DNA of 45,439 nucleotides from Minisyncoccota bacterium (GCA_040879725.1 JBBDJV010000001.1:1-45439), one strand, 5' to 3'. Counted from the first letter of the stretch, positions 1-33,464 are shown. Program-made: numbers and translations. Notes: a model not told the origin generated them from the letters alone.

Positions 1-157
1 TCTCCTTACAGGAGCAGTACCCCAATTGGATTTTTTCTTCGCCTTTCAGGCTCGAAAAAATGCTCAATCGGCCTGCCTGCCAGTAGGCAGGGCTTCGATT
101 CCCGCACGGAAGCATCCCCATGCTTCCTCTCGGGCACAGTCTCACTACGTTCGCTTG
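1..157 (-). repeat. tRNA-Leu(TAA)-associated structured module (inverted, hairpin-split copy of tRNA 3' end plus 20-bp palindrome); runs off window
   Basis: TTCGATTCCCGC (94-105) + 23-nt hairpin insert (106-128) + CTCGGGCACA (129-138) reproduces the tRNA 3' end in inverted orientation; palindrome at 72-91. Confidence 0.8.
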
Positions 158-242
158 TGCCCGAGGCGGGAATCGAACCCGCACGCCTGTTTAGGGCCGG
201 GGATTTTAAGTCCCCTACGTCTACCTATTCCGTCACCCGGGC
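158..242 (-). tRNA. tRNA-Leu(TAA)
   Basis: Reverse complement GCCCGGGTGACGGAATAGGTAGACGTAGGGGACTTAAAATCCCC...GGTTCGATTCCCGCCTCGGGCA folds as a cloverleaf with long variable arm, anticodon TAA. Confidence 0.95.
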
Positions 243-375
243 ATATATTGCTAAAAACCTATATATATTAGCAGAAACGGTGGAGTAAACCAATAGTTTA
301 CAGTATGCATTCCCAAAAGAAATATATAAGGTATTATATATAGTAATAAACTTTACCAATAAAAAAGATGTAACT

Positions 376-1446
376 ATGTTTGAAAGACCAACAGATGAAA
401 GCATGTCTTTCGATGGAGAAGGAAATCGTGTTGATAATGAAGCTGTAACAGAAAAGGGTATGAGTTTTGATGGTGAGGGAAATCCGGTTGAAGGAGATAA
501 TTTTAATGCAACACCCGACACCTCAAGTACACTCCAATTTGAGCAAACTTCGCAAGAAGAAGCGCCTACTGGAGAAGAGCCTGTTTCTGAATCTCAAGAA
601 GAGCCAAGTGCGGAAGTGTATCCGGAAGCCCCGTATAAACTTCGTCCCCGTGAAGATGTTTATGCACCACAGACTGAGGAACAGCCTACTGACACTACTT
701 CAGTTTCTCAGGAAAGTGGAGGAGAGGAGCCTAATGAAAGTAATGATGTCGAGGGAGAACACGGCCCACCACCTACTGGTGGAGTAGAGAGTGATGCGTC
801 CCAAGAAAACAGCTCGGGGGAAGAAACAGGTGAACAGAAGCCAGAGCCGGCATATGCAGGTGAGAATGCGCAGAATAAAGAAGGAGCAAGGGAAGGTGAA
901 CCATCTCTTCGTGAAATTGGACGTGAGCGAATTACTAAAATTGGTAACTTTTTCAACAAATTCAAAGAATCTTTTCAGAGTAATCTTTTTGTAGCAGGAG
1001 GATCGATGTCACGGTTGCTCCAGAAAATACGAACAACCGGCGTTGCTGGAGCTGAGATGCTTATGGCGGGGCCTGAGGTTGCTGTCCGAGCGGTGGAGGC
1101 AGGGGTAGGGTCTGTAGCAAAAGGATATGAAAAGGGAACTGATGTATTGCGAGCGATAAAAAATAAAATACTTGAAGCAAAAAGTAATCTGCTTAGAAAA
1201 GGAAGGGATGGAATTGAAAAAGCTGTCGAGGCGGTTGTTGATCTCAAAAAAGCCGTGGTTGAAGCAGGAAATCACGCGCTGTATAACTTTGTCGATAAGA
1301 TAACTCGGCCGTTTATTGCATTTCAAAGTGAAAGATTAAAAAGCACAGCAAGATATATGGAAGAGCAGGTTAAGAAAGGGAAGTGTCCCGCTGAAGAGCT
1401 TGAAGGTGTACAAAAGAAACTTAGTCACTTAGCAGGATTAAAATAA
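376..1446 (+). CDS. hypothetical protein, acidic low-complexity N-half with duplicated MSFDGEGN motif, helical C-half
   Basis: 356-aa ORF with ATG start; no recognisable family. Confidence 0.75.
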   Translation: MFERPTDESMSFDGEGNRVDNEAVTEKGMSFDGEGNPVEGDNFNATPDTSSTLQFEQTSQEEAPTGEEPVSESQEEPSAEVYPEAPYKLRPREDVYAPQTEEQPTDTTSVSQESGGEEPNESNDVEGEHGPPPTGGVESDASQENSSGEETGEQKPEPAYAGENAQNKEGAREGEPSLREIGRERITKIGNFFNKFKESFQSNLFVAGGSMSRLLQKIRTTGVAGAEMLMAGPEVAVRAVEAGVGSVAKGYEKGTDVLRAIKNKILEAKSNLLRKGRDGIEKAVEAVVDLKKAVVEAGNHALYNFVDKITRPFIAFQSERLKSTARYMEEQVKKGKCPAEELEGVQKKLSHLAGLK

Positions 1447-1451
1447 GATAT

Positions 1452-1805
1452 ATGGATAAAGAAAGAGAAGAGTTAAAACAATATATTGAAAACGCTGATA
1501 TTCCTGATGAGCTAAAATCCCGAGAGCTGGCTATCGTGGCAAATACTGCGCTTTCAATACCAGAAGTAAAAATGGAGCTAGCGAAGCTTATCAGTGAGGA
1601 TGTTGATGCGACAACTGCTCGTTTGAATATGAATGCTATTCCTCAAAGCAATGAAGAACGTTTGGCGTATAAAGAGTTTGAACTTATATCTGAAGAAGCT
1701 GGGAAAAATCTGAAAAAGGAAATGGAATTAGTTCAAGAAAACCTTGAATTGATTGCTGATCTTTCAAATGAAATAGAAAAAGTTTCGGCGAGTTCTTCGG
1801 TGTAG
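1452..1805 (+). CDS. hypothetical acidic helical protein
   Basis: 117-aa ORF 5 nt after upstream stop, followed by terminator. Confidence 0.7.
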   Translation: MDKEREELKQYIENADIPDELKSRELAIVANTALSIPEVKMELAKLISEDVDATTARLNMNAIPQSNEERLAYKEFELISEEAGKNLKKEMELVQENLELIADLSNEIEKVSASSSV

Positions 1806-1814
1806 TAGAGAAAT

Positions 1815-1845: not shown

Positions 1846-1878
1846 ATTTCTCGAAGAATCGAAACCATTCTGCTTTTT

Positions 1879-1902
1879 GATGCCACGGCGAGAATCGGTC
1901 AC
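1879..1902 (-). repeat. direct repeat of tRNA-Cys 3' end preceded by GTGACC
   Basis: 16-bp identity GCCACGGCGAGAATCG (1882-1897 vs 1940-1955); minus strand reads GTGACCGATTCTCGCCGTGGC. Confidence 0.8.
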
Positions 1903-1937
1903 AAATCACTAAGTCTGCATAGAATATTTAATCTTTG

Positions 1938-6570: not shown

Positions 6571-9264
6571 ATGCCACCATTTGATCACTTCACAGAAAAA
6601 TCTCAAGAAGCTATTAAGAAGGCCCATGAACTAGCTGTTGAGCGAGGACAAAACCACGTTAATCCCGTGCACCTTTTGACTGCGCTTATTCTGCAAGACG
6701 AAAGCATGGTAGCGTCTATTCTTGATAAGCTCGAAGTTGATACTGTGCTTCTTACCGACTCACTGCTTGAGTCAATCGAAGGTGTAGAAGGAGGATCAGT
6801 CGCGTCTCCGTCATACCAGATTTACCTTACTCCGGAGTTTGCCCAAACACTCGAACAAGCAGCGAAGCTTGCCAAGAAAATGGATGACCCGCGTGTATCA
6901 ACAGAACATCTTTTTCTCGCCGTCTTTGACGTACCGGGAACTGCTCGCGAGTTGCTCGCGCGTTTTCGAATTAAACGAGAAGAAGTGGAGCGTATTATAA
7001 TTGAGCTCCATGACAGCAATGTGACTGACGCAACACCATCAAAGAAGATGCGTTCTATTTCAAAATACACTCGAAGTCTGACACAGTTAGCAAAAGAAAA
7101 TAAACTCGATCCGGTTATTGGCCGAGATATGGAAATTACGCGTATTATTCAAATTCTTTCCCGGCGGACGAAAAATAATCCGATTCTAATCGGTGAGGCA
7201 GGTGTCGGAAAGACAGCGATTGCGGAAGGTCTCGCAAACAGAATTGCCAGTGGCGATGTGCCCGAGTCTTTGAAAGACAAAGATTTGGTGTCGCTTGACC
7301 TTGGGTTGCTTATTGCCGGTACAAAGTACCGAGGAGAGTTTGAAGAGCGTCTAAAGGCAATCATGAAGGAAATAGAGCGTTCTGACGGAAAGGTGATTCT
7401 CTTTATTGATGAGATTCATACTATTGTAGGCGCGGGAGCAGCAGAAGGAGCGATGGACGCATCAAACATGCTTAAACCGGCACTTTCTCGTGGAGAGCTT
7501 CGTGTGATAGGTGCAACCACTCTTAAGGAATACCAAAAACATATTGAAAAAGACCCTGCGCTGACACGGCGGTTCCAGCCGGTTCATGTAAACGAACCGT
7601 CACTAAATGATGCTGTTGCTATTTTGCGTGGGTTAAAAGAAAAGTATGAATTATTCCACGGAGTTCGAATTACGGATGACGCGATACTTGCGGCAGTACA
7701 TCTTTCAAGTAGATACATCACTGACAGATACCTTCCTGACAAGGCAGTTGACCTAATAGACGAAGCGGCTTCAGCACTTCGTATCTCTCTTGAGAACAAA
7801 CCGCCAGTACTGGAAGAAACACATCGAAAGATAATGCGTCTTGAGATTGAGAAAGAAGCACTCAAGAAAGAAGCAGCAAGTGAGACCGGTAAAAAAGCAA
7901 AAAGCAGAGTGCGCATAATTGATAAAGAAATTGCTGATCTGAGAGAAAAGACAAGCGAGATTGAGCTTAAGTGGAAGAATGAAAAAGAGGTTTTGATTTC
8001 AATCCGTACACTGAAAAAAGATTTAGAACAATTACGAATTGACGCTGATTCTGCTGAAGCAAGCGCTGACCTTACTCGTGCAGCTGAGATTCGATATGGA
8101 AAGATTCCAACACTTGAGAAAAATCTTGCGTCTGCTCAGACAAAACTCAAAAAGCTTCAGAGTTCTCGAAGAATTCTAAAAGAAGAGATTACAGAGTCTG
8201 ATATTGCAGACGTAGTATCACGCTGGAGCGGTGTGCCTGTATTTCGTATGCTTGAAGAAGAAGCAGAAAAGCTTGGTCGCATGGAAGAGGTTCTTAAAAA
8301 GCGAATCGTGGGACAGGATGATGCAATTCAGCGAGTAGCTGACGCGGTAAAGCGTTCACGAGCGGGCATTGCGGATCCGGAGCATCCTATTGGTTCATTT
8401 CTCTTCCTCGGTCCAACTGGTGTTGGTAAAACAGAACTCACTCGCGCGCTGGCTGAATTTATGTTTGACAGCGACAAAGCATTGGTACGAATTGATATGT
8501 CCGAGTACATGGAAAAGCATGCGGTTTCAAAAATGATTGGTTCTCCTCCGGGGTATGTAGGACACGAGGAAGGAGGGTCTTTGACTGAGCTGGTGCGACA
8601 TCGTCCATACTCTGTTCTTCTCTTTGACGAAATTGAAAAAGCACATCCTGAGGTGTTTAACATTCTTTTGCAGGTTCTCGATAATGGACGTCTTACAGAT
8701 GCGAAAGGCCGTGTAGCAAACTTCAAAAATACTATCATTATTTTGACATCAAATATTGGTGCTCAACATATTGATCAAATGGAGAAACTCGGATTTTCTA
8801 CTGGAAAGAGTGATGAAGAAAATGACCGTGATAAGTATGAGCTCGCAAAAGGGAAGGTGATGAAGTCTTTGAAACAGTTTTTCCGTCCGGAGTTCTTGAA
8901 TCGTCTTGATGAAATTGTTCTCTTTGACACACTGCCTCGTGAAGCGATAAAGAAGATTGTTCAAATACAGGTTGATATTGTTATAAAACGGCTTGCGGAA
9001 AAAGAGATTACTCTCGTCATTGAAGACAGTGTACTTGAATACCTCGCAAAGGAGGGGTACAACCCGCATTACGGAGCAAGACCGCTAAAGCGATTGATTC
9101 AAAGTAAAATCCTTACAAAGGTAGCGTCACTTATGATTTCCAAAGGGGTAACTCAGGGTGGACGTATTACTGTGGGGTATAAAAACAGTGAATTTGTTTT
9201 TGACGTGAAAGAAAAGAAGGTTCGAAAAAGTCAGAAGCAAATGGAGGAAGCCGGAGTTAACTAA
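6571..9264 (+). CDS. clpB: ATP-dependent chaperone ClpB
   Basis: Two Walker A motifs ([16 protein letters not shown]), long coiled-coil middle domain with [15 protein letters not shown]. Confidence 0.95.
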
Positions 9265-9318
9265 AGAGACTCCGCGTGGTTGAATGAGTGAGAGCGGTGT
9301 GGTACACTGCTCTCTGAC

Positions 9319-9402
9319 GCGTCGGTGGCGGAGTGGTCAATCGCAACAGACTGTAAATCTGTCGCCCTTCGGGCTACGTAGGTTCAAATCCTACCCGGCG
9401 CA
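9319..9402 (+). tRNA. tRNA-Tyr(GTA)
   Basis: GCGTCGGTGGCGGAGTGGTCAATCGCAACAGACTGTAAATCTGT...GGTTCAAATCCTACCCGGCGCA. Confidence 0.95.
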
Positions 9403-9860
9403 CATAAATACCCCGCAAGGGGTTTTTATATGCGCCGGGAGCAAGGCAATTTGAATTGCCTTGCGTTAGGATTTGAAAGCCGGAGCGTTGCACGAGTTTG
9501 CCTGAAAGGCAAGGCGAGTGCCGCGAGGCGGGGTAGCCTGCCTGCCGGTAGGCAGGCGCAAAATTTTCGTCAGAAAATTTATGTGTGACCAAATCCTACC
9601 TACCCGGCGCACATAACAAAAAACCAACTCTTCACGAGTTGTTTTTTGTTATGCTTGTGTGGAGGATTTGAACAGGAAGGGGCCTGCCTACCGGCAGGCA
9701 GGTCGGGAAACCTGTGGTTTCCCGTGGAGTGAGAATGCGTGTTACACATTCGCAAGGCCGGAGGCAGACGTGCCGAGGCGGGGTCGCGGAATTTTTCAGC
9801 AGAGAAAAATATCCGTGACAGGCAGTGAGTGTTTTTACCGAAAGACAGAGCCCTCCAAGC
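9403..9860 (+). repeat. two tandem tRNA-Tyr-associated structured modules
   Basis: Antisense tRNA copy 9431-9477 split by a hairpin, scaffold, GTGACC + sense copy (~9585-9613), second antisense T-arm GGATTTGAAC, palindromes at 9537-9556 and 9683-9702. Confidence 0.8.
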
Positions 9861-9972
9861 GAAGTCCAGTCTCGTTGAGATAACAGTAGGATAAATCTTA
9901 TCAGATATTTACTTATAGAATATTGATTAATTCGCAAGGAAGAGTATATTTAGGCGAGAAAGGAATATTTTT

Positions 9973-10527
9973 ATGAAAGACTCTCTTCCAGTGTATATTG
10001 CAAAAAAGTATAAAGGTCAGGCATCTGTGGAATATGGTAATAATGGTAATGACGGTTACTTATTCCCAGTTAAAACCGTTCCAACAAGAGAACAGATCTT
10101 AGTGTCACTGTATCCACCTATTAGACCGCGCGTTCTTGATATTATTGAGAAGGAAGAAAAGGAGTTCTGTCCTACTCAATTTGTCCTCCTGTCTTGGCGT
10201 AGCATTCACAGGTTTAGTTGGGTGGAAAATGAGATCACTCGCGCAGGACTTGCGAAACCGAGTCTCTTACAAGTCATCAGTTTTTGGTTGACGTACCCAG
10301 GTCATACCGGTCAAATTATATTCATGCATACGCCGGTAATTCATGGTTATCCCAATATGGATGGAAGACCAAAGATTGGTGCAGGTGACCCTTGTAGCCT
10401 TTGCTGTAATTTTGCTTTGCGTCCTGGTGGTGAAGGAACAAAAAATCGGTATATGTTTTTTGTACAATCAGCGCAAAGTACAGGACATGATTCAACTTTC
10501 GCGTATGGTGCAGTCACTTCACTTTGA
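9973..10527 (+). CDS. hypothetical protein
   Basis: 184-aa ORF with upstream AAGGA, followed by hairpin terminator ~10547-10576. Confidence 0.6.
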   Translation: MKDSLPVYIAKKYKGQASVEYGNNGNDGYLFPVKTVPTREQILVSLYPPIRPRVLDIIEKEEKEFCPTQFVLLSWRSIHRFSWVENEITRAGLAKPSLLQVISFWLTYPGHTGQIIFMHTPVIHGYPNMDGRPKIGAGDPCSLCCNFALRPGGEGTKNRYMFFVQSAQSTGHDSTFAYGAVTSL

Positions 10528-10650
10528 TTGAATGCCTAAGGCATTCAAAACCACCTTTTGTTTTGGGTGGTTTTTTGATGGGTCTATACTTTGTGCTGTC
10601 AGTAGTTCCTTCTATTCATTCTTTCTCTGATTTGCTACACTGTTTCTACT

Positions 10651-11208
10651 ATGCTCTATACACGAAAAGGAGATCAGGGAACTACTAAATTATTCAACAC
10701 CCCTAAAGGCGAGCGGGTGTCTAAAGCATCGTGTCAGACTGAGGCACTTGGAGCGATGGATGAGATGAACTCTTTTCTTGGTTTGGTTAAGGTAAAGTCG
10801 GCAGAGCAAAAGTATAAATTCAAAGATACGTATATTGCTGATTTGGTTCACGGGGTTCAAGCAAACTTGTTTATCATTCAAGCGGAACTGGCTGGTTCTG
10901 ATATGACCATACTCAAAGAAAAAATTGATTCGATTGAAGCAGTGATAGACGCAATAGAAAAAGAAATGCCACCTATAACTACGTTTTTTATTTCGGGCGG
11001 GACTGAACTTGCGTCACTATTTGATATTTCTCGCACTCTTGCTCGAAAAGCTGAACGGAGGGTTATAAAGGGAATTGAAGAGGAGTCTTTTGTTGTGGGT
11101 GAACACACTCGACAGTACTTAAACAGGCTTTCGTCACTACTTTACGCTCTCGCACGGTACGCGAACCACAGCGCGGGTATTTCAGAAACTGCCCCTAATT
11201 ACACATAG
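10651..11208 (+). CDS. ATP:cob(I)alamin adenosyltransferase (PduO type)
   Basis: LYTRKGDQGTT, EALGAMDEMNS, RTLARKAER, YLNRLSSLLY. Confidence 0.9.
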   Translation: MLYTRKGDQGTTKLFNTPKGERVSKASCQTEALGAMDEMNSFLGLVKVKSAEQKYKFKDTYIADLVHGVQANLFIIQAELAGSDMTILKEKIDSIEAVIDAIEKEMPPITTFFISGGTELASLFDISRTLARKAERRVIKGIEEESFVVGEHTRQYLNRLSSLLYALARYANHSAGISETAPNYT

Positions 11209-11209
11209 T

Positions 11210-12292
11210 ATGGCTTTTCAAATAGCAACGGGCTTTTTTGAACGTTACGAAAAACATATTTCATCTTTTGCGCTGGTAGCAGGTTTTGTGATTGATAGTT
11301 TTACACTACAGCGCATTGATCTGCTGTTTGAGAATATCGTTTTACTTTCATACATTGTTATTGCCGGTACCTGTATTTTGTTTCTTTCGTTGTGGAAGGA
11401 AGAATGGCTTCAGCGTCCAGTACTGGGCAAGGTGCACGCACTGCTTCTTATTGCAATGCAGTTTGCATTCGGAGGTTTGTTCAGTGCGTTTTTAATATTC
11501 TATTCTCGCAGTTCCTCGCTCATTGCTAGTGCGCCGTTTCTACTCTTGCTCTTCTTTATTTTGATAGGTAACGAGCTTTTTAAGAAGCAGTATATTCGTC
11601 TTACGGTCCAGATTAGTATTTTCTTTTTGGTTTTGTATTCTTATCTTATTTTCACCATACCGGTTCTACTGGGGCAGATGAGCTGGTGGATATTCTTGTT
11701 GAGCGGAGCGATAAGCTTGGTGTTGATTCGTGTATTTATTCTGCTGTTGCGTCTTGTGAACCCGGCAAAAATGATTATGGCGGGAAATATGTTTCTACCG
11801 ATAATTATTATTTTTGTTCTAATAAATGGCCTGTACTTTTTAAACATTATTCCACCAATTCCTCTTTCGCTTAAAGATAGCGGAGTGTACCACTCTCTTA
11901 CTCGAACACAGGATGGTAGTTATGTCGTAGAGGAGGAAACCAAGACATTCAGAGATTACTTTAGGATGTATGAGCAGGTATCACTCCGTGCAGGGGATTC
12001 ACTTTTTGCTTTTACTTCTATTTTCGCACCGACAAATTTTGAAACTGATATTTACCATGTGTGGGAACAGTACAATCGAAAGAGTGAAGAGTGGGAAGAA
12101 ACAAACAGAATACGTCTACCTATTGTCGGAGGAAGAGATGGCGGGTATCGCACGTTTTCTGTTAAGCAGAATCCCGGTATGGGGCTGTGGCGGGTAAGTG
12201 CGGTAACTGCGCGTGGACAGGTGATCGGGAGGATAAATATCAGCGTAGAGCGAGTAAGTGAATTGCCTTCGCTTGAGGTGATTACCAAGTAA
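11210..12292 (+). CDS. DUF2914-like multi-pass membrane protein
   Basis: ~7 TM helices then IPPIPLSL...AFTSIFAP...GGRDGGYRTFS...GLWRV. Confidence 0.75.
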   Translation: MAFQIATGFFERYEKHISSFALVAGFVIDSFTLQRIDLLFENIVLLSYIVIAGTCILFLSLWKEEWLQRPVLGKVHALLLIAMQFAFGGLFSAFLIFYSRSSSLIASAPFLLLLFFILIGNELFKKQYIRLTVQISIFFLVLYSYLIFTIPVLLGQMSWWIFLLSGAISLVLIRVFILLLRLVNPAKMIMAGNMFLPIIIIFVLINGLYFLNIIPPIPLSLKDSGVYHSLTRTQDGSYVVEEETKTFRDYFRMYEQVSLRAGDSLFAFTSIFAPTNFETDIYHVWEQYNRKSEEWEETNRIRLPIVGGRDGGYRTFSVKQNPGMGLWRVSAVTARGQVIGRINISVERVSELPSLEVITK

Positions 12293-12293
12293 C

Positions 12294-12779
12294 ATGAGGA
12301 ATGTCACTCTTTGCTTTTTGTTTCAAGATAATAAGATTTGTTTAGCAAAAAAGAAACGCGGTTTTGGAGTTGGGAAATACAATGGTGTAGGAGGAAAGGT
12401 TGAAGAAGGTGAGAGTGCAACTGGGGGAGCGGTACGGGAGCTATACGAGGAAGTATGCGTGCGCGCAGAAGAATCCAGTCTTGAGCCGGTTGCTGATATC
12501 ACGTTTATCTTTTCAGAAAAAGAGGAATGGAATCAGCGAATGTTTGTTTTTAAAATTGATATTTTTGAAGGCGTGCCAGTTGAGACAGATGAAATGGATC
12601 CAAAGTGGTTTTCCGTTGATGATATACCATACGAAAATATGTGGATCGATGATCCTTATTGGTTACCGCTTGTGCTTGCCGGGAAGAGGGTGAAGGCACG
12701 CTTTGTCCTGAGTAGTGATGGAAGTGCTCTGATTTCAAAAGAGGTTAAAGAAGTAGAGGAAATAACGTATGAAAATTAA
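12294..12779 (+). CDS. NUDIX hydrolase, 8-oxo-dGTP diphosphatase (MTH1-like)
   Basis: KKRGFGVGKYNGVGGKVEEGES...RELYEE Nudix box; MWIDDPYWLP. Confidence 0.9.
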   Translation: MRNVTLCFLFQDNKICLAKKKRGFGVGKYNGVGGKVEEGESATGGAVRELYEEVCVRAEESSLEPVADITFIFSEKEEWNQRMFVFKIDIFEGVPVETDEMDPKWFSVDDIPYENMWIDDPYWLPLVLAGKRVKARFVLSSDGSALISKEVKEVEEITYEN

Positions 12780-12885
12780 ATGGAATAAGGTTACGTGGTA
12801 TTCAAAGGTTTTTGCTGTTGTGCTGGGAGTGGTAATTTTTGGAATTGGTTTTTACTTCGGTTTTCAATTTGGAGTATTGAGGTAG
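12769..12885 (+). CDS. 38-aa single-TM protein (not in ORF track)
   Basis: MKIKWNKVTWYSKVFAVVLGVVIFGIGFYFGFQFGVLR; overlaps NUDIX stop, GAGGA upstream. Confidence 0.6.
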   Translation: MKIKWNKVTWYSKVFAVVLGVVIFGIGFYFGFQFGVLR

Positions 12886-12909
12886 GGTTGCTTTGATTCC
12901 TTTACTTTT

Positions 12910-13242
12910 GTGCGAGCCCGCCCAGACTCGGTCACTAGTTACTAAGTTTTTTGTATCGCTTCACTCACAAAAAACAAAGTACTCTTGACCTGGGCTCGTC
13001 CGTTTTGAGAGTACTCAAAACATGACTCCGCCTTTCTCGTCTGGACAGACACACAGCAGTGTGTGTCTTGCGGACCCTCCGTTTCTCTGCGGGCCCTCGT
13101 TCATTCCTATGTTTCGTTCTCAGGAAGAAAAGAACGAAACATATTGGAATGTTTGCTTCGCAAAACTCGCTAAATAGTACGCAGGTACTATTTAGCCCCG
13201 TTCCTCGAATGTTCGAGTCTGGGCTGTCCCTCCACTTCGTTG
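12910..13242 (-). repeat. tRNA-Trp-associated structured module
   Basis: Inverted copy 13211-13230, hairpin-split inverted copy ~13034-13077, scaffold shared with Gln and Leu(CAA) loci, GTGACC + sense copy 12911-12935. Confidence 0.8.
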
Positions 13243-13314
13243 CGGGCCCGCCCAGACTCGAACTGGGAACGTCGGTTTTGGAGACCGATGTTTTACCATT
13301 GAAACTACAGGCCC
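13243..13314 (-). tRNA. tRNA-Trp(CCA)
   Basis: GGGCCTGTAGTTTCAATGGTAAAACATCGGTCTCCAAAACCGA...GTTCGAGTCTGGGCGGGCCCG. Confidence 0.95.
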
Positions 13315-13340
13315 GTAGTGAGGATACGATACCACAAAGG

Positions 13341-14234
13341 CTACTTTTTCGAAAGCAGAAAGGATGCAACACGTTCTTGTATCTTTTGAAGGTCTTTCGG
13401 CTCAAACCACTCTACTTCCTTGTTCCGCTTAAACCATGTCATTTGCCGCTTTGCGTATTGGCGTATAGCGGTTTCAAGTTGAACTGACATGTCTTCAAAT
13501 GAAAGCTTATTTTGGAGATAGTAGGCGAAGTATTTATATTCAAGACCCAGCTCTTCCATACGCTCAAAAGAAAGCCCATTGTCATGGAGCTTCTTTACTT
13601 CATGGAGCAAGCCATTCGCTATTCTTTTTAGTAGTCTTTCGTGAATGCGTGCATGTAGCTCTTCGGTGGGAAGTATAAGTCCTACGTAGAGCGTGTCATA
13701 AGTTTTTTCTTGTGAAAGTGGTTCTACAGAACCCAAGGCCTCGATAATTTCCAAAGCGCGTATAAGTCTGCGGGGGTTATGTCTGTCTATTGTCTGTGCG
13801 CGTTTTTTATCTTTTTCTAACAGTAATGCATAAAGCTCTTCTGTATTTTTCTGTGACAACTCTGCTCGTAGTTTTTCATTCGGTGGTACTGCGGGAAGTT
13901 GCGCTCCATTTACAACAGAATCTATATACAGCCCGGTTCCTCCACATAGTATAGGCAGTGAGCCCTGTGTATGTATATGTTTAATAACAGACGTTGCGTG
14001 CTCTATAAAGGATTTTAGTGAGTACGTGTCTTTTGGGTCTGCGATATCAAGCAGGTGGTGGGGAACTCCTCGCATTTCACTCTGAGTAATTTTTCCAGAG
14101 CCGATATCGAGCCCTTGGTATACCTGACGTGAGTCAGCAGAAACCACCTCACCATTATAGGAAAGGGCAATCTCCACGGCGATGTCGCTTTTACCTACTG
14201 CGGTTGGTCCGACGATGGCTACTATTTTCTCCAT
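13341..14234 (-). CDS. miaA: tRNA dimethylallyltransferase
   Basis: IVGPTAVGKS, SADSRQVY, GGTGLY, YAKRQMTWF; start at MEKIVAI. Confidence 0.96.
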   Translation of the reverse strand: MEKIVAIVGPTAVGKSDIAVEIALSYNGEVVSADSRQVYQGLDIGSGKITQSEMRGVPHHLLDIADPKDTYSLKSFIEHATSVIKHIHTQGSLPILCGGTGLYIDSVVNGAQLPAVPPNEKLRAELSQKNTEELYALLLEKDKKRAQTIDRHNPRRLIRALEIIEALGSVEPLSQEKTYDTLYVGLILPTEELHARIHERLLKRIANGLLHEVKKLHDNGLSFERMEELGLEYKYFAYYLQNKLSFEDMSVQLETAIRQYAKRQMTWFKRNKEVEWFEPKDLQKIQERVASFLLSKK

Positions 14235-14634
14235 ATGTGAAAGTATTGCGTTTTCTGAGGAAAATGCAAGGTAGGCTCTGGCTTTCAAGTCTCACCTCCG
14301 CCTACAAAAATATAATCAAAATATGTTCCACATATTTCTCATTATTTTTGTGTTTTTATATAACTATACTCGAACCTACTTTGCCAACCGATAGTTCAGC
14401 ACCACACACACCTTTGCTTTTCCATTTTTAAAAATCCTCCACCAAGAAAAATTATGTAAGCTTAAAAGGTGTGTATGGCCTTCTACTCTTCAAGTATTCA
14501 GGCAGTACGGGGCTAATACTTTTACACAATTTTTTGTAGAAAGATCAATATATAATGCTAAACTTGATAATGTGTAAACATGTGTAGTCGATGCATGTTC
14601 TAAAATTATTCACTTAATTAAATTACAAAAACTT

Positions 14635-15660
14635 ATGCAAAATATATTTTCATCCAAGAAGATTTTTATCCTTGGATTGATTACAGTTATTGGCATTGCG
14701 TTCGTAGCAACGTTATCTGGCGTATTCGTACAAGCACAAGCGCACAAGTTTGTTTTCATTGAGGGCGGCAAGGCGTATCTCTCATCAGACTTATCTGCTT
14801 CGAAAATAGCAGATAATGTCGAAGGTATGCTTGCCTACAATCCAACATTAGAGAAATACTTATATCGCATTGCACAAAATGGGGGTGACGGACACAATCA
14901 TGATAGCGGCTCTCTTGTCCTTGCAGATAGCAATACAGGCAAAACTCACGTTATAACAACAGATGTCATGACTGCAGCACTCTCTCCGGACGGTACACAG
15001 ATTGCTGTATGGAATGGAGATAACGAGATTTATCTCATGACCGCTGACGGTAACGAAATTGCCCGTATTGGTGTTCATGGTGCATTGCCAGTGTTTTCAC
15101 ATGATGGGACGTATGTGGCGTACAACAAGCTTGCAGAGGAAGGAGATAGGTTCTTTGATCTCTCGGAGGAATCTCCTTACGGTATCGCAATCTATAACCT
15201 GAAGACTGGTGAGGAGGAAATTATTACGGAAAATGTACATGATTTCCAGCCACTCGGTTTTTCCGCTGACATGTCGAAGCTTTACTTCAATTCAGGTCGT
15301 GCATACGAAACTACACCAGAGGGATTCAGTAATCACGTTGCGTCCCTTTGGGTTGTTGACCTAAAAACTAAAGAAGTGGCACGCCTTACAAACACTGACG
15401 AGGAAGCAGTGCGTCGTGGTGATAAAGCACCGATTATTCATGCGACGGCACTTTGGTCTTCTGATCGAAAAACGGTGATTTCATCACTTGAAGCCGAATC
15501 GGGAGTGTGGCAATTCTCCTTCAGCGACGATGGCAAGCTTGTAGACGCGAAACAGATTACAGATGGAACATCACCTCGTTGGGTTGTACCAGGTGAGAGT
15601 ATCGCTGTGAGGACAAAGGTCGGTAATAGAAATGAGTGGAAAACAATTAACATAAAATAG
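14635..15660 (+). CDS. secreted TolB-like beta-propeller protein
   Basis: Signal/TM N-terminus; repeated SPDG/FSHDG/FSADM/WSSD blade motifs. Confidence 0.75.
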   Translation: MQNIFSSKKIFILGLITVIGIAFVATLSGVFVQAQAHKFVFIEGGKAYLSSDLSASKIADNVEGMLAYNPTLEKYLYRIAQNGGDGHNHDSGSLVLADSNTGKTHVITTDVMTAALSPDGTQIAVWNGDNEIYLMTADGNEIARIGVHGALPVFSHDGTYVAYNKLAEEGDRFFDLSEESPYGIAIYNLKTGEEEIITENVHDFQPLGFSADMSKLYFNSGRAYETTPEGFSNHVASLWVVDLKTKEVARLTNTDEEAVRRGDKAPIIHATALWSSDRKTVISSLEAESGVWQFSFSDDGKLVDAKQITDGTSPRWVVPGESIAVRTKVGNRNEWKTINIK

Positions 15661-15665
15661 TACTT

Positions 15666-16301
15666 ATGCAGAATATACTAAACAAAATCGCTGCTGCGCA
15701 GGTGATAATGGGAGTTGCTACACTACTTGCAGCTGTCATACTTGCTTTTGTAGTTCAAGTGTCCACCGCAGAAGCAGTATCAACAATGCGTCTCCCGCTC
15801 TCATCTGATCCAGGAATCAATGCATGGTTTGATCATCAAGCTGGTTCAGGATTCAAGAAGTATACTTGCTCGACAAGCGGAAGCTATGATGGGCATGAGG
15901 GTACCGACTTCCCAACATATCTCGGCAGAACAATCTACGCTGGAGCAAATGGTGGTGTGTATTATCGTTATGATGGTTGTGCAAACTCAGGAAGCTGGGG
16001 TTGTGGCGGTGGATTTGGGAACCATGTTCGTCTTGAACACTCGGTGGATAGCTTAGTCTCGATCTACGCTCATATGAAAAATGGAACACCTGCATGGTAT
16101 TCTAGTCTCTCATGCAACCTTGGTGCAACAGTCGGTCAAGTTGCAAGTTCTGGTAATAGCTCTGGTAACCATCTACATCTTGAACTTTGGTCAGATCGCT
16201 ACAATAACTACGAGATTGATCCATTCAGTGGTAGTTGTAGCCAAGCTACAAGTTACTGGACGAATCAAAACAGCGGTTCTCCAACTACCGCGTGTCAGTA
16301 G
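15666..16301 (+). CDS. secreted M23-family metallopeptidase, Cys-rich
   Basis: HEGTD, GFGNHV, YAH, SGNSSGNHLH, IDPF motifs. Confidence 0.88.
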   Translation: MQNILNKIAAAQVIMGVATLLAAVILAFVVQVSTAEAVSTMRLPLSSDPGINAWFDHQAGSGFKKYTCSTSGSYDGHEGTDFPTYLGRTIYAGANGGVYYRYDGCANSGSWGCGGGFGNHVRLEHSVDSLVSIYAHMKNGTPAWYSSLSCNLGATVGQVASSGNSSGNHLHLELWSDRYNNYEIDPFSGSCSQATSYWTNQNSGSPTTACQ

Positions 16302-16312
16302 CCTAGACCAAC

Positions 16313-16341
16313 AAAAAAAGCCACGACTGATGGCTTTTTTT
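16313..16341 (+). terminator. intrinsic terminator
   Basis: AAAAAAAGCCA-CGACTGA-TGGCTTTTTTT. Confidence 0.7.
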
Positions 16342-16370
16342 GTTGGTTACCCTATAATTAAGTTAAATAT

Positions 16371-16922: not shown

Positions 16923-17079
16923 CACCAAGTAACCTCTGTATTAGCTTATTTTTCTGCAAAAGTCAGAAAAATCCTAAGTACTCTCGAATCTTACAGATTC
17001 TGTACACCTTTTGGCTCTTTTGCTTCACATGGGTTCGCAAAACAGCTCAAAAGGTCTTGCGAAAGCGCCCCGCGCTTTC

Positions 17080-17569
17080 TCACCCGGCTCGTCCGTTTTG
17101 AGAGTACTCAAAACATGACTCCGCCTTTCAAGTCCCACACGCACACAAAGCAGTTTGTGTGCTCTCCGGCACGGGGAGGGGGCCTGCCTGCCGGCAGGCA
17201 GGTCGGGGAACGGGAGTTCCCCGTGAAGTGAGAATGCGTGTTACGCATTCGCAAGGCCGGAGGCAGACGTGCCGAGGCGGGGTCGCGGAATTTTTCAGCA
17301 GAAAAATATCCGTGACAGGCAGTGAGTGAGTCTTCGAACGAGCGTTGGAAAACCGTGGGTTTCCAAGTTGTGCCGGAGACTATTTCTGGACTTGTCCCGC
17401 AGTTACTAAGCTTTTTGTTTTGCTTTGCTCACAAAAAGCAAAGTACTGCTGGACGCGGCTCGGGTACGACCAGAAGACTGGTCGGCTTCGCACCCTCCGC
17501 CTTTCAAGTCCCACCTCCGCCTACAAAAATATAATCAAAATATGTTCCACATATTTCTCGTTATTTTTG
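17080..17569 (-). repeat. composite tRNA-Leu(CAA)-associated structured modules
   Basis: Inverted tRNA 3' copies at 17502-17524 and hairpin-split 17127-17172; ~44 bp shared with Trp locus; ~150 bp shared with Tyr locus; palindrome 17183-17202. Confidence 0.8.
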
Positions 17570-17651
17570 TGCCGGAGGTGGGACTTGAACCCACACCCCT
17601 TGCGGGACACGATTTTGAGTCGTGCGCGGCTACCAATTACGCCACTCCGGC
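17570..17651 (-). tRNA. tRNA-Leu(CAA)
   Basis: GCCGGAGTGGCGTAATTGGTAGCCGCGCACGACTCAAAATCGTG...GGTTCAAGTCCCACCTCCGGCA. Confidence 0.95.
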
Positions 17652-17893
17652 AGATGTTCTACATGCTTTAAAAACTCTTTCCCAATTCCCGATTTTAGAT
17701 ATTTTTCTCTTTCTCGAGCTTCTTGTCTTGTGTTGTATTTCTCTAGCAAGATTACCTCAAAGGGGCCGTACGGTCTAGTGGTTTTGTTTTTCCCCAAGTT
17801 GTGAGCACTTATTCTCTGTTCAGGATTACCAGTAATTCCTACATATATATAATTTCTTTCTCTACTTTTTAATGCGTATGTATAATAGCTCAT
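17630..17893 (-). CDS. small standalone GIY-YIG endonuclease
   Basis: YTYALKS...YIYVGITGNPEQRISAHN...EAREREKYLKSG; stop codon lies inside tRNA-Leu D-loop. Confidence 0.88.
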   Translation of the reverse strand: MSYYTYALKSRERNYIYVGITGNPEQRISAHNLGKNKTTRPYGPFEVILLEKYNTRQEAREREKYLKSGIGKEFLKHVEHLPEWRNW

Positions 17894-17907
17894 TTTTCTT
17901 CCATGGT

Positions 17908-17993
17908 GCTACCAACCTGCCTGCTGTCTGCCTACCAACCTGCCTGCCGCCTGCCTGCCGGTAGGCAGGGCAGGCAGGTTACGCCACTCCGGC
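17908..17993 (-). repeat. duplicated tRNA-Leu 5' end interrupted by nested 20-bp palindromes
   Basis: GCCGGAGTGGCGTAA (17993-17979) | 63-bp palindrome cluster | TTGGTAGC (17915-17908). Confidence 0.85.
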
Positions 17994-17994
17994 A

Positions 17995-18030
17995 ATGCGC
18001 CTCTTCGGCGCATGCGCCGAAGAGGCGCAT
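17995..18030. repeat. perfect 36-bp palindrome
   Basis: ATGCGCCTCTTCGGCGCATGCGCCGAAGAGGCGCAT equals its reverse complement. Confidence 0.9.
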
Positions 18031-18198
18031 AGACCGAAAAGTACTTTTTTATCAATATTTTTCTTCTCTCAATTTCTCTTTTAAAACTCTTTCCCGTAAA
18101 TATATCTACGTTTGATAAGTCTACTTAAATACACACTAAAAATCAACAATGAAGAGTTTGGAAGTGTGTGTTAGAATACGTAAGTAATTCGAAAAAAA

Positions 18199-19506
18199 AT
18201 GTCACAATTTCAAGAAAATTCTGTATTTTGGATTGAGGTAGACAAAATACACGCTAACCCATATCAACCTCGCTTTACCTTTGATGAAGCAAAGCTCGAA
18301 GAGCTCGCTGATTCCATTCGCCAGTACGGAGTGCTTCAGCCATTGGTAGTTACTCGAAAAGAATCAACTGGTCCAGACGGAGGTATTGTCGTAACTTACG
18401 AGCTTATCGCAGGTGAGAGAAGGTTGCGAGCGTCTAAAATTGCCGGAGTAAAGCAGGTACCTGCACTTATTAGAAGTGGTGAAGATGACGCACAGGTAAA
18501 ACTCGAGCTTGCTATTATCGAAAACTTACAACGAGAAGATCTCAACCCAGTAGATCGCGCGCGAGCGTTTGAACGTCTCGCAAAGGAGTTTAACTTTAAG
18601 CATACTGAAATCGCAAAGAAGGTAGGTAAAAGCCGTGAGTATGTTTCAAACACTCTTCGCTTGCTCTCACTTCCTGATGAAATACTCCAAGCGCTTGCTG
18701 AAAAGAAAATTACTGAGGGTCACACTCGACCGCTCATGATGCTAAACGATAGACCTGATGAACAACGAACATTGTTTAGGGAGATTGTATACAAGAAGGT
18801 GAACGTGCGTGATTCTGAAATGCTCGCGCGTCGTATTGCACAAGATAAGGTGCGTAAAAAGGAATACACTGTCGATCCTGAAATTGCGGAGTATGAAGGC
18901 AAGTTGGCTGAGTCACTCGGTACACGCGTTATGATTGAGCGTGGCGAAGAGGGAGGGCGTATTATGATAAGCTTTTTCAGTAACGATGATTTGGAGGAAT
19001 TGGCACTTATGCTCGCGGCAAAAGAAAAGCGTGGTGCACACTCAATGCTTAAGCGTTTTATGGAGCAAAAGGGTATTCAAAGCGCTCCACTGGAAAAGTC
19101 TGAGGTTACTCCACAAACACCAAGTACGCCACACGTATCACCTGAAGAGTCTCTACCTGAACAACAGCAAGTAGCCAAGGAGGCTCCCGCACCAACTCAA
19201 AATGTCACACAACTAGCACATGTTCCTACGCAAGATAGACAGGAAGATAGTCCGGAAGAAGTGAGGGTGAGTGTTTTTGATGAAAATCACGAAACACCAG
19301 AAGTGCAAAGCTTCTCAAGTAATGAAGTGAGTATGCCTTATGGCACACAAGCAGAAAGTCCTGCAGAGCAAGAGAATACTAGTGGAGGGGTTGAAACTCC
19401 TACACCTGATGCACCGAGTCCTGTAGAGGAGTTTGAACCGCAACGCGAGGAAGTTGTCGAGGAAGACGACTCAGACATGTACTCGATTAAAAACTTTTCT
19501 GTGTAA
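18199..19506 (+). CDS. parB: ParB/Spo0J partition protein with acidic disordered tail
   Basis: NPYQPR, GVLQPLVV, LIAGERRLRA, IENLQREDLNP, HTH KSREYVSNTLRLL. Confidence 0.93.
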   Translation: MSQFQENSVFWIEVDKIHANPYQPRFTFDEAKLEELADSIRQYGVLQPLVVTRKESTGPDGGIVVTYELIAGERRLRASKIAGVKQVPALIRSGEDDAQVKLELAIIENLQREDLNPVDRARAFERLAKEFNFKHTEIAKKVGKSREYVSNTLRLLSLPDEILQALAEKKITEGHTRPLMMLNDRPDEQRTLFREIVYKKVNVRDSEMLARRIAQDKVRKKEYTVDPEIAEYEGKLAESLGTRVMIERGEEGGRIMISFFSNDDLEELALMLAAKEKRGAHSMLKRFMEQKGIQSAPLEKSEVTPQTPSTPHVSPEESLPEQQQVAKEAPAPTQNVTQLAHVPTQDRQEDSPEEVRVSVFDENHETPEVQSFSSNEVSMPYGTQAESPAEQENTSGGVETPTPDAPSPVEEFEPQREEVVEEDDSDMYSIKNFSV

Positions 19507-31480: not shown

Positions 31481-31964
31481 CAAGGAGAGTATTGTGTTGC
31501 TAGTATAGCTATGTGCACACAACTAGTGCTTGCAGGAAACTCGCATTACGTGCACAGGTGGAGAGGATGCGCTTTCAATATTTGCGCAATAATTAGTCCT
31601 CTCCACCTTTTTGTTGACAGTGTATAGTGCTCTGGTGTATAAAAGTTATTGGTTGTCCTTGTGGTCAAGGACATGATGTCCCTGTTTCGGCTTTAACACT
31701 CACGAAAGGAGTGCAATGAGGATTCGAGGTCCGCCTTGAACAAGACAGGTAGAGAAAGTACATACAACCTAACGATTGTAAACCACCTTTCTCTACCTGT
31801 TTTTTTATTGACGTACAAAAAGGAGGAGGGTAAACTTATTAGTAGTGGTGATACTTTACTGCGCATGCATGTTGGTAGGATTAGACACCCTTATGACTTG
31901 GTTTGCGGTGCGCAGATAGGGAGGTAGGGCGGAGCAGTCGAAGACTGCTCCGCCCTTTATTTTT
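31199..31964 (+). ncRNA. four tandem promoter-to-terminator small RNA units (putative)
   Basis: TTGAC(A/G) at 31199, 31477, 31614, 31808 with 17-18 bp spaced -10 boxes; long hairpins + U tracts ending 31437, 31612, 31806, 31964. Confidence 0.55.
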
Positions 31965-32006
31965 GTATTTTTTCTTATACCGCTGGTATTTGCTATACTA
32001 CTGTGT

Positions 32007-33074
32007 ATGACAAAGACGAGCACACAAGACCATATTGCATTTTATAGAAAATATCGACCAGCACACTTTGATGAAGTAATAGGACAAGAACACATCGTTT
32101 CTGTTTTAAAAGAATCAGTTGCACGTAAGTCAGTTGGGCATGCGTACTTGTTTGCTGGTTCACGAGGTACAGGGAAAACCAGTGTTGCTCGCATACTCGC
32201 CAAAGAGCTTTTGACCGACGCAAATGATATTTATGAAATAGACGCTGCTTCAAACCGTGGTATTGATGATGTTCGTGCACTTCGTGAGGCGGTAACATCG
32301 CTTCCTTTTTTCTCACAGTTTAAAGTCTATATTGTAGACGAGGTGCACATGCTTACTAAAGAAGCATTTAATGCACTGCTTAAAACTCTCGAAGAGCCTC
32401 CCAAACACGCAATTTTTATTCTTGCTACAACAGAGATAGATAAACTTCCGCAGACTGTTGTGTCACGGTGTCAGACCTTTACGTTTAAAAAACCCACCCG
32501 CTCTGAGCTAGTAGAGGTAGTAAAGTCAGTAGGGAAAAAAGAAGGGTATAGTGTGGAGGAGTCTGCAGCGGAGCTTATCGCAATCCTTGGAAACGGAGCA
32601 TTCAGAGATACGCATGGAGTACTTGAGCAGGTTGTGTCAGGAGTTTCAACGAAAACCATCACCGTTCTTGATGTAGAGCGAATTACCGGAGCTCCGAAGG
32701 GAGAGCTTGTGAATGATATTGTCGGCTCCATTGCAAATCGTGTGATTGAAAATGGTTTGAACGCAATACGAAAAGCAGGAAAACAAAATATCGATATGAC
32801 ACTCCTTACGAAGCTCGTAACAGAGAAAGTGCGCGCGGTTCTTCTGTTGCGTATAGCACCGAATATGCGAGAAGATATTCTGTCAGACTACACACCGGAA
32901 GATGGAAAATTTCTTTCAAATTTGGCAGAATCAGGAAAGGAAATAAACTCAAAAACGCTTCTTGCTTTGCTCGAGGTGCATGATTTTCTCGGAAAGGGAG
33001 ATGTTCCGGAATTACCACTAGAACTTGCACTCGTGAAGATTTTAGAGCAAAATGAGAAGCCAGAGAAGAAGTGA
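32007..33074 (+). CDS. dnaX: DNA polymerase III subunit gamma/tau
   Basis: YRKYRP, GSRGTGKTS, EIDAASNRGID, DEVHML, LLKTLEEPP, SRC. Confidence 0.96.
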   Translation: MTKTSTQDHIAFYRKYRPAHFDEVIGQEHIVSVLKESVARKSVGHAYLFAGSRGTGKTSVARILAKELLTDANDIYEIDAASNRGIDDVRALREAVTSLPFFSQFKVYIVDEVHMLTKEAFNALLKTLEEPPKHAIFILATTEIDKLPQTVVSRCQTFTFKKPTRSELVEVVKSVGKKEGYSVEESAAELIAILGNGAFRDTHGVLEQVVSGVSTKTITVLDVERITGAPKGELVNDIVGSIANRVIENGLNAIRKAGKQNIDMTLLTKLVTEKVRAVLLLRIAPNMREDILSDYTPEDGKFLSNLAESGKEINSKTLLALLEVHDFLGKGDVPELPLELALVKILEQNEKPEKK

Positions 33075-33156
33075 GTATAAATTAGTGTATAAAAGAAGAG
33101 TTGTGACCGAGTCCCTGACTCGAACACAATAGAAGTAAATGGTAGAATGCTGTCAT

Positions 33157-33227
33157 TGCCCGATCGTCTAATGGTAGGACGCTTGGTTTTGGTCCAAGTA
33201 ATTGGGGTTCGAGTCCCTGTCGGGCAG
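33157..33227 (+). tRNA. tRNA-Gln(TTG)
   Basis: TGCCCGATCGTCTAATGGTAGGACGCTTGGTTTTGGTCCAAG...GGTTCGAGTCCCTGTCGGGCAG; U1-A72, G73. Confidence 0.95.
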
Positions 33228-33464
33228 CATAAAAATAAAGAGCCGGATGTGATAACATTCGGCAATTTTATTTTTACCTGACCGCAGGGACGAGAAAGGC
33301 GGAGTCGGTACCTGCCTACCGGCAGGCAGGTACAAGACGAGCACTTCAGTGCGAGTGCTTGTCGGCGAGCCGGGGTCGAGAGTACTTTGTTTTTTTTATG
33401 ATCTTGAGCTTGTCGAAAGAGAAATAAAAAACTTAGTAACTCGTGACCGAGTCCCTGTCGGGCA
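33228..33464 (+). repeat. tRNA-Gln-associated structured module
   Basis: Degenerate antisense copy CTGACCGCAGGGACGAGAA, scaffold AGGCGGAGTC...ACTTAGTAACTCGTGACC, sense copy 33448-33464, palindrome 33311-33330. Confidence 0.8.

Follow-up and report, generated by a model that had tools for sequence, protein, structure and literature searches.

All six tRNA genes in a 45,439-nt stretch of DNA from a Minisyncoccota bacterium (GCA_040879725.1 JBBDJV010000001.1:1-45439; the whole stretch is called the window here) are followed by all or part of a small cassette that encodes no protein. The cassettes belong to a very large family, are ~130–250 bp long, and reside at the 3' ends of tRNA and transfer-messenger RNA (tmRNA) genes. 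Each complete cassette combines a conserved folded core with backward and forward copies of the tail of the adjacent gene. An original prediction, made from the sequence of the window alone, had described a constant scaffold carrying locus-specific copies of each tRNA end; the observation was confirmed and extends far beyond the window. We interpret the cassettes as non-autonomous integrative elements in which the paired sense and antisense tail copies, together with the core, would form a folded attachment site used by an enzyme supplied in trans, a reading to which we assign a probability of roughly 45%.

Cassette layout behind the tRNA genes of the window

Annotation with ARAGORN and Rfam identified six tRNA genes in the window and no RNA match at the gathering score other than to tRNA or tmRNA. 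Each downstream region was read in tRNA orientation, and a whole or partial cassette layout was present in six of six, at the coordinates expected from the original prediction. The order is S1 (the tRNA tail), a hairpin spacer that is often terminator-like, A (an antisense copy of the tail), a core ending in GTGACC, and S2 (a sense copy of the tail). A spans from 1–3 nt beyond the discriminator back to the TTC of the T-loop, and S2 starts in the T-loop, immediately after the GGTTC position. The core has the consensus AGGCGGAG ... CGAGCCGGGGTCG ... hairpin ... ACTTAGTAACTCGTGACC. At Leu(TAA), Tyr, Trp, and the second Leu(CAA) unit, A is split exactly at the acceptor/T-stem boundary by a 23–27-nt hairpin with the conserved loop AACTGCTT. 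The predicted split antisense copies were recovered at all four loci (Leu-TAA 94–137, Tyr 9431–9477, Trp 13034–13077, and Leu-CAA 17127–17172), as were the four predicted combinations of GTGACC and a sense copy (Cys 1881–1902, Tyr 9584–9611, Trp 12912–12935, and Gln 33443–33464). One correction applies: Cys retains a core tail and S2 only, and the Leu(TAA) cassette is cut by the contig start. The units are located as follows:

1..137, minus strand: Leu(TAA) cassette behind tRNA 157–242, with acceptor antisense 129–137, hairpin 106–128, and T-arm antisense 94–105; type-B core 1–93 (minus strand) with a GC-rich palindrome at ~70–93; S2 missing, the contig start cutting the cassette
1881..1919, minus strand: Cys remnant behind tRNA-Cys 1937–2009, in which only the last ~20 nt of the core (core tail ..ACTTAGTGATTT, with GTGACC 1897–1902) and S2 (1881–1896) are left
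9386..9403, plus strand: S1 of tRNA-Tyr, which begins in the T-loop after GGTTC, extends to the 3' end, and has its copies in A and S2
9404..9611, plus strand: cassette Tyr1, absent at the matching site in the same-genus genome G001, with terminator-like spacer 9404–9430; A in an acceptor part 9431–9439, hairpin 9440–9466, and T-arm part 9467–9477; core 9475–9589 (plus strand) with palindrome 9537–9556 and GTGACC 9584–9589; S2 9590–9611 (plus strand), containing a 4-nt duplication
9661..9831, plus strand: older and longer type-D unit with degenerate T-arm antisense 9661–9672 and palindrome 9683–9702; its core contains CGAGGCGGGGTCG and GTGAC
12912..13241, minus strand: region behind tRNA-Trp (13242–13314) with partial antisense 13212–13230; A in an acceptor part 13070–13077, hairpin 13045–13069, and T-arm part 13034–13044 (minus strand); core 12930–13036 (minus strand) with GTGACC 12930–12935 (covariance model E 1e-20); S2 12912–12929 (minus strand) with 1 mismatch
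14276..14352, minus strand: second copy (95%) of the Leu(CAA) spacer, antisense, and core start, beside a decayed tRNA 3' remnant
16950..17568, minus strand: array behind tRNA-Leu(CAA) (17569–17651), its unit order differing in G001; first cassette with spacer 17522–17568, unsplit A 17503–17521, core-1 17394–17505, and interrupted S2 17370–17393; inverted type-D unit ~17165–17340; second cassette with A 17164–17172, hairpin 17139–17163, T-arm part 17127–17138, and a long type-C core ~16950–17129
33103..33124, plus strand: collapsed remnant upstream of tRNA-Gln, with GTGACC, a Gln(CTG)-type T-arm copy, and T-loop antisense
33229..33464, plus strand: Gln(TTG) cassette behind tRNA 33157–33228, with terminator-like spacer 33229–33277; degenerate A 33278–33296 (plus strand) with the GACGAGAA variant; core 33294–33448 (plus strand) with palindrome 33311–33330 and GTGACC 33443–33448 (covariance model E 2e-14); S2 33449–33464 (plus strand)
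39422..39443, plus strand: third Gln tail copy, GTGACC plus S with 1 mismatch, closing a 6-kb low-GC cargo island at 33465–39421

Stretches are common to several units, as the original prediction had noted. The Trp and Leu(CAA) cassettes have 49 nt in common at 96% identity, and the Trp and Gln cassettes both carry ACTTAGTAACTNGTGACC and the GACGAGAA variant, which corresponds to two mismatches at T-loop positions 57–58. An inverted copy of the type-D unit lies at 17179–17328 (93% identical), and a near-identical type-B unit, S2 included, was identified behind tRNA-Arg(CCT) on contig C18.

Core structure and matching of the arms

The core is a structured, covarying nucleic acid. A consensus constructed from eleven cores of the genome that contains the window (G000, hereafter the source genome) has 22 pairs, 19 of which show compensatory changes. 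Among 35 distinct cores from other genomes, 96.3% of cells were paired, compared to 68.1% after shuffling and 27–36% with slid partners, in an alignment that was fitted to the covariance model and favours the structure; changes on both sides occurred at 21 of the 22 pairs. Folding of S1-spacer-A plus the core as DNA gave a z of −10.4, and folding of A through S2 as RNA gave a z of −7. No family in Rfam 15 reached its gathering score over the cassettes of the window, and at E up to 1 four loci yielded just weak mir-8229, mir-2063, and mir-BART12 models, far below gathering scores, which were taken as chance.

Matching of the arms was assessed in 115 units from ~100 genomes. The T-stem part of A agreed with the cognate tRNA at 5/5 positions in 40/115 units versus 6/575 controls, and at no fewer than 4/5 in 84/115 versus 80/575. 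A 12-nt S2 with at most 1 mismatch was present in 67/115 units and 0/115 controls, preceded by GTGACC in 56 of the 67, and a full-length A match of at least 0.8 was found in 38/115 units and 0/115 controls. The arms are real, yet many copies are decayed. In the source genome, 16 units lie next to a tRNA; when A was compared with 31 tails, the neighbouring tRNA came first or tied for first in 14 of them. The arm matches and the covariation agree in upholding the predicted constant scaffold with segments that follow the adjacent target.

Core-motif matches (183 in 170 sequences) are closely tied to these genes. A co-oriented tRNA or tmRNA gene lies within 450 nt upstream of 133 and within 100 nt of 116, and matches with no nearby upstream tRNA are mostly at locus or contig ends. 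The matched target segment measures 12–24 nt, with a median of 19 nt for the S1/S2 repeat. In 47/67 units, the end of this repeat falls −2 to +3 nt from that of the tRNA, which indicates a defined block and not a random duplication; direct repeats run on for 8–36 nt in 6/67, several of them tandem units. A variable target-site duplication, produced by staggered cuts or break-induced copying, was rejected because of these sharp ends.

The identity of A was examined at G.U positions in tRNA stems; in 10 tRNAs A complements the 3' strand there, and in none does it copy the 5' strand. As A is antisense through the T-loop as well, it is not a decayed or degenerate tRNA duplicate. In tmRNA, Leu(CAA), and Thr units, A tracks the genomic trailer and not CCA, so its pairing partner would be the gene or primary transcript rather than the mature tRNA. 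A retroelement primer-binding site was rejected on the same trailer evidence and because the source genome has 0 matches to reverse transcriptase (RVT_1). In 16 of 30 well-matched split units, and in all four split copies of the window, A is interrupted at the acceptor/T-stem boundary, 11–12 nt from its T-loop end. Both halves of A are antisense to one tRNA strand and abut on the target. The boundaries of the core are T-loop derived on both sides, with ..GAATCGAA before and GAnTCC after.

Distribution and mobility

The source genome is 873,751 bp in length in 22 contigs, contains 30 tRNAs and a tmRNA, and is 100% complete by marker genes. Cassette units lie behind most of its tRNAs, commonly two or three in tandem, and behind the tmRNA gene, with at least 20 tRNA/tmRNA genes occupied; the predicted tRNA targets thereby extend to tmRNA genes. 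A covariance model of the core has 28 matches in this genome at E up to 1 and matches in 50 of 61 genomes of the same order (1–34 per genome, ~58 families sampled). Of 19 loci retrieved, 18 have a co-oriented tRNA or tmRNA gene just upstream, with which both A and S2 agree. An exact core-motif scan of species representatives identified at least 119 stretches, in Patescibacteria plus three in Elusimicrobia, with record titles naming Parcubacteria/Paceibacterota groups, metagenome-assembled genomes labelled 'Saccharibacteria', Berkelbacteria, and the three Elusimicrobia. The Elusimicrobia units have the complete layout. An even phylum sample with stricter filters gave 7/151 positive genomes, with real minimal units of ~74 nt, a count that is not comparable to that of the motif scan, which represents the wider spread. 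Several unrelated scaffold types (A, B, and C) occur with one arm layout. The GC-rich palindrome CCTGCCTGCCGGTAGGCAGG has 17 copies, every one within a tRNA-linked region, which makes it a cassette module; a genome-wide repetitive extragenic palindromic (REP) element with a link to RAYT was rejected on this basis.

Many tRNAs of the source genome sit at contig ends, as expected if cassette repeats break the assembly. Sequencing run X1 may be the source sample, and its contigs tile the window loci with zero differences. Only X1 holds the window; X2 and X3 cover just conserved tRNA and clpB parts, and parts without cover in these two runs prove nothing. Repetition of the layout in dozens of independent assemblies rules out a local assembly artefact, which the original prediction had named as a possible explanation.

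Genome G001 is syntenic with positions 8000–18500 of the window and provides an empty site. Its tRNA-Tyr tail runs directly into a native terminator with no cassette. In the window, the same gene is followed by the cassette (9404–9589), a second tail (9590–9611), and then the terminator found in G001. The junction of this empty and filled pair lies just after GGTTC, with an exact duplication of S; an empty-site allele, which had been proposed as a check, therefore exists. At tRNA-Leu(CAA), units are shared with G001 in another order, and in each of the two genomes a long unit lies between S1 and A in inverted orientation. A 3.2-kb gene island near this tRNA, the far end of which is the copy at 14276..14352, is missing from G001. 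The tmRNA unit is chimeric (A for tmRNA, S2 of Gly type), and a single core subtype is found with Tyr, Arg, Leu, and Ser, depending on the genome. Genomes carry between 0 and 34 copies, and decayed copies exist. Cassettes are gained as well as lost, form tandem stacks, differ in order, lie either way round between S and A, and bracket islands of cargo.

Additional observations concern the same loci. An RNA-library contig of run X4, from a related organism, contains tRNA-Trp, four A, and then the cassette, and 162 nt that lie between them in the window are absent; aligned to window 12912–13296, its tRNA-Trp is joined directly to 13078. The 3.2-kb island (window 14353–17000, from tRNA-Leu(CAA) to miaA) encodes a beta-propeller protein, an M23 peptidase, and two unknown open reading frames (ORFs), and is bounded by a decayed tRNA 3' remnant. 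The island bracketed by Gln tails at 33465–39421 has a GC content of 0.37–0.40, is without a recombinase, and encodes a VanX/VanY-like peptidase, two D-Ala-D-Ala ligase paralogues, an SHMT-like enzyme, a methyltransferase, and a low-molecular-weight phosphatase.

Mechanism, alternatives, and known systems

We propose that the cassette would bring its own T-loop-to-3'-end segment, which would become the working tail S1, and that the original tail would be displaced to S2. Since the cassette supplies its own tRNA tail and terminator, the host gene would stay intact. In single-stranded form, S and A could zip into a duplex replica of the 3' end of the tRNA gene, stacked on the core. This folded S:A stem plus core may serve as the attachment site of the element, like integron attC and CTX phage attP, and would be recombined with the T-loop of a matching tRNA gene by a recombinase acting in trans. 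The sole tyrosine recombinase of the source genome, which is Xer-like, is a candidate only; the integron-integrase model scored 131.9 against it (cut-off 265).

Other enzymes were searched for in the source genome and its relatives. The IS110 DEDD recombinase (PF01548) had 0 matches in the source genome and matched control genomes, no TnpB was found in the source genome, and an all-against-all comparison of its ORFs yielded no multicopy transposase. A parent insertion sequence (IS) for the cassettes was found neither among the neighbouring ORFs of 30 loci nor in this ORF comparison. Weak homologues of the Y1 transposase are present. Y1_Tnp matches occur in 40/61 genomes and are not co-distributed with cassettes (35/50 genomes with cassettes and 5/11 without), and two cassette-bearing genomes, G050 (10 units) and G053 (17 units), have none. 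Two large serine recombinases adjoin tRNA-Ala and tRNA-Glu in the source genome. Resolvase-domain/serine recombinases do not track the cassettes across 61 relatives, G001 has 34 units and no serine recombinase match, and no core lies within 1.5 kb of serine-recombinase genes in 8 loci. The original prediction had proposed a search for co-occurring recombinase, nuclease, or reverse transcriptase genes; neither Y1 transposases nor resolvase-domain proteins are co-distributed with the cassettes. Its view of the elements as non-autonomous stands, the cassettes encoding no protein and the 30 loci having no recurrent neighbouring gene.

Large serine recombinase genes converge on tRNA 3' ends, at Ala and Glu here and at Ala and Ser elsewhere, usually at contig ends. 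The loci are as follows:

C5:36945–37382, minus strand, in G000: serine recombinase
C7:226–666, plus strand, in G000: serine recombinase
L075:6062–7696; L187; L189: further serine recombinase loci

These islands look like a separate integrative class at the same hot spots. In one genome, such an island sits between the tRNA and two cassettes, an arrangement that resembles the usual integration of an island at a shared hot spot. At L110:1738–3793, IS3-type transposase ORFs (rve domains) are inserted between tRNA-Ser and a cassette.

Several results count against a folded attachment site used by an enzyme in trans. Cassettes occur in genomes with neither Y1 nor serine recombinase matches, such as G053, and the ORFs beside the 30 loci, among which no gene recurs, are spurious frames across the core. 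A phage or plasmid carrier was not found: a 17-mer scan of viral contigs gave two chance matches inside ORFs only, and a core motif scan of viral contigs gave 0. A free or circular form of the cassette was not seen, and we know of no Xer-type enzyme that acts on ~25 different sequences. Most copies have an imperfect A (only the 38/115 noted above reach a full-length match of 0.8), and the covariation alignment is one fitted to its own model. An RNA-library contig of a relative includes the tRNA-Trp tail plus the cassette and stops near the S2 end. The core is also conserved in sequence and structure across phyla, which would equally suit an RNA.

Evidence for RNA or DNA is indirect and bears on the main alternative, in which the cassette is transcribed as a guide. 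A and S2 would then base-pair with both strands of the tRNA gene, or else with pre-tRNA, and the core would be where a host protein for integration, cutting, or modification takes hold, following a bridge-RNA-like logic with a different enzyme, in which A (20–24 nt) may split around a protein-binding hairpin. We consider this unlikely. Its favourable points are a guide-like length of A, which abuts a conserved structured scaffold; the hairpin loop AACTGCTT, kept from Paceibacterota to Elusimicrobium; loops and structure that persist across phyla; the use of one arm layout by unrelated scaffolds A, B, and C; the RNA fold of A through S2; and the RNA-library contig, from a library that may contain DNA. 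Both A halves address one strand, however, and the source genome is without IS110, reverse transcriptase, and TnpB, with no co-distributed or neighbouring protein. Watson-Crick helices (~94% of core pairs), the lack of wobble bias, terminator-like hairpins, the lack of promoter-like sites, and the DNA fold are hints that the structure acts as DNA. G.U and A.C combinations in the core (14 versus 7) and A:S mismatches by wobble type (21 versus 19) are counts too weak to decide. A terminator-like hairpin precedes A or the core in about half of the units (56/117, versus 2/107 control windows), and no promoter-like site was found near units. The motif GCGAAGC, a very stable DNA mini-hairpin, is frequent and counts on the DNA side. 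An RNA-guide or cis-antisense role, as put forward in the original prediction, could apply, but the rarity of G.U, the absence of wobble bias, and the hairpins leave nothing that singles out RNA. The arms, as RNA or folded single-stranded DNA, may direct a widespread host enzyme to the tRNA gene with no element-encoded protein. This base-pairing-programmed integration is unlikely in our estimate; if true, specificity would be re-written just by changing the arms, and the cassettes would be a new class of guide-directed site-specific recombination across Patescibacteria and Elusimicrobia.

The remaining alternatives carry less weight. Cores might spread without an enzyme, moving from one tRNA locus to another by gene conversion or by template switching during replication via the flanking T-loop sequence, with quasi-palindrome correction in the S1-spacer-A hairpin keeping A complementary. 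The T-loop-derived core boundaries, near-identical cores at different tRNAs of one genome, chimeric units, a strictly Watson-Crick A, the single long imperfect palindrome formed by S1-spacer-A, and the failure to find a dedicated enzyme would all fit. This process is nonetheless improbable, as it leaves unexplained the covarying structure and conserved loops across phyla, the first insertion at an empty tRNA site, and repeats that end sharply at the tRNA end in 47/67 units, with only 6 running on. It is distinctly improbable that the cassettes are genes for a tRNA-like small RNA, with a cellular function carried by the core, and are not parasites; A and S2 would form a minihelix of acceptor and T-stem, the optional hairpin would take the place at which the D and anticodon arms depart, and the RNA would be processed like a tRNA by RNase P, RNase Z, and CCA enzyme. 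The position of the split, the termination of S2 at the tRNA 3' end in most units, and the tmRNA gene as a further partner suit a mimic. A is antisense through the T-loop and 1–3 nt beyond the discriminator, however, so neither end of the helix has the shape of a tRNA; a mimic would have no evident need for T-stem identity with its neighbouring tRNA; and 0 to 34 copies per genome, presence/absence between congeners, and decayed copies also speak against it. Ordinary attachment scars of integrase-bearing islands or prophages at tRNAs, combined with unrelated terminators, would account for direct partial-tRNA repeats, cargo islands, and the serine recombinase genes that abut tRNA-Ala and tRNA-Glu here and tRNAs elsewhere. 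They have only a very slight chance of being the explanation. They are contradicted by the locus-matched inverted copy of the target and the conserved covarying core, as the original prediction had argued, by at least 20 occupied tRNA genes versus one tyrosine and two serine recombinases, and by the 34 units of G001, a genome with no serine recombinase match.

The folded attachment site proposed here resembles integron attC and CTX attP(+), in which a single-strand-folded imperfect inverted repeat around a structured spacer is the recombination site. Structure kept more than sequence, stacking in arrays (as for integron cassettes), a trans-acting enzyme, and possibly a mismatch bubble beside the crossover, here GACGAGAA at T-loop positions 57–58, are further likenesses. 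Unlike in attC and attP, the cassette stem replicates a particular target tRNA gene and changes with the target, which is a tRNA/tmRNA T-loop and not attI or dif. In contrast to integron cassettes, there is no integron integrase here, and the minimal cassettes are without an ORF. The inverse-core and core sites of attC follow the consensus RYYYAAC ... GTTRRRY, and the T-loop GTTCGAA merely resembles the core site. CTX-type Xer elements integrate at dif, whereas a tRNA or tmRNA gene lies <100 nt upstream of 116/183 motif matches here.

Islands at tRNA genes were also compared. tRNA-targeting integrative islands and their integrase-less derivatives, such as tycheposons (bioRxiv 10.1101/2020.12.28.424599), integrate at the 3' part of a tRNA or tmRNA gene, restore the tail, leave partial-tRNA repeats, push older insertions outward with successive ones, and accumulate cargo. 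These elements carry a tRNA-specific integrase, one per tRNA, and have no inverted tail copy and no common structured core, unlike the cassettes. Direct partial-tRNA repeats flank the insert in 67/115 units, as in integrase-borne islands. A cognate integrase per tRNA is not present (one tyrosine and two serine recombinases for at least 20 occupied genes), and one core family serves >20 different tRNAs without its own integrase.

Guide-based and transposon-like systems differ in other respects. The left and right guides in bridge-RNA loops pair with opposite strands of target and donor. The IS110/IS1111 bridge (seek) RNAs and the cassettes both have a conserved RNA-like scaffold with reprogrammable target-matching segments, and two guide segments with a hairpin between them. 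The analogy drawn in the original prediction was not supported, as there is no DEDD recombinase in the genome and no Rfam match, the A halves are contiguous on the target and pair with one strand, and target duplicates of 18–26 nt stand against a 2-nt core in IS110 elements. The scaffold, the targeting, and the non-autonomy are the parts of its interpretation that were retained. IS200/IS605 ends and their miniatures likewise have single-strand hairpin ends with an internal 'guide' that pairs with the target and with the own end, and insert immediately 3' of the recognised sequence. Their guides are 4–5 nt in length compared to 12–24 nt here, and TnpB is lacking and Y1 is weak and not co-distributed. 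Bacterial MITEs (miniature inverted-repeat transposable elements) and REP repeats are also small, non-coding, multi-copy, hairpin-forming, and intergenic, with terminal inverted repeats. In the cassettes, unlike in these, the inverted repeats are target-derived and different at every locus, insertion is at one specific position of a tRNA gene, and no parent IS was found. TIGR arrays have 36-nt RNAs with 9-nt spacers and were rejected as unlike the cassettes.

A literature search that did not extend to subscription journals and supplements found no description of such elements, and together with the Rfam result this agrees with the prediction that the family had not been described. With their defining features tested, no described family fits, and the cassettes, with a conserved folded core and forward and backward tail copies, are rated as a new kind of element. 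They would be a further, mobile or guide-bearing kind among the few systems in which base pairing selects the DNA target. They fill most tRNA genes in a large, tiny-genome part of the bacterial tree with few known mobile elements, and they explain why tRNA loci break these assemblies and where cargo islands sit. Hundreds of natural arm/target pairs surround one small scaffold, which makes what reads the arms directly testable. Even if only a passive repeat, the cassettes are an unrecorded family of covarying structures relevant to annotation pipelines.

Minor features were identified near these loci. Most tRNA genes of the source genome have no encoded CCA, with Ala, Ser(GCT), and Asn encoding it, and Ala and Ser(GCT) have a different GC-rich downstream sequence in common. 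A 15-nt module, GAAAGTGTACTCACG, is common to three genomes (L108, L114, and L164), in which it separates GTGACC from the remainder of S2. The cassette palindrome and a perfect 25-nt inverted repeat occur at 17940–18040, upstream of tRNA-Leu(CAA) toward parB, which is the 'wrong' side of this tRNA. Two 77-nt direct repeats, 108 nt apart, lie in a minus-strand ORF at 42403–42587 that looks like a repeat protein.

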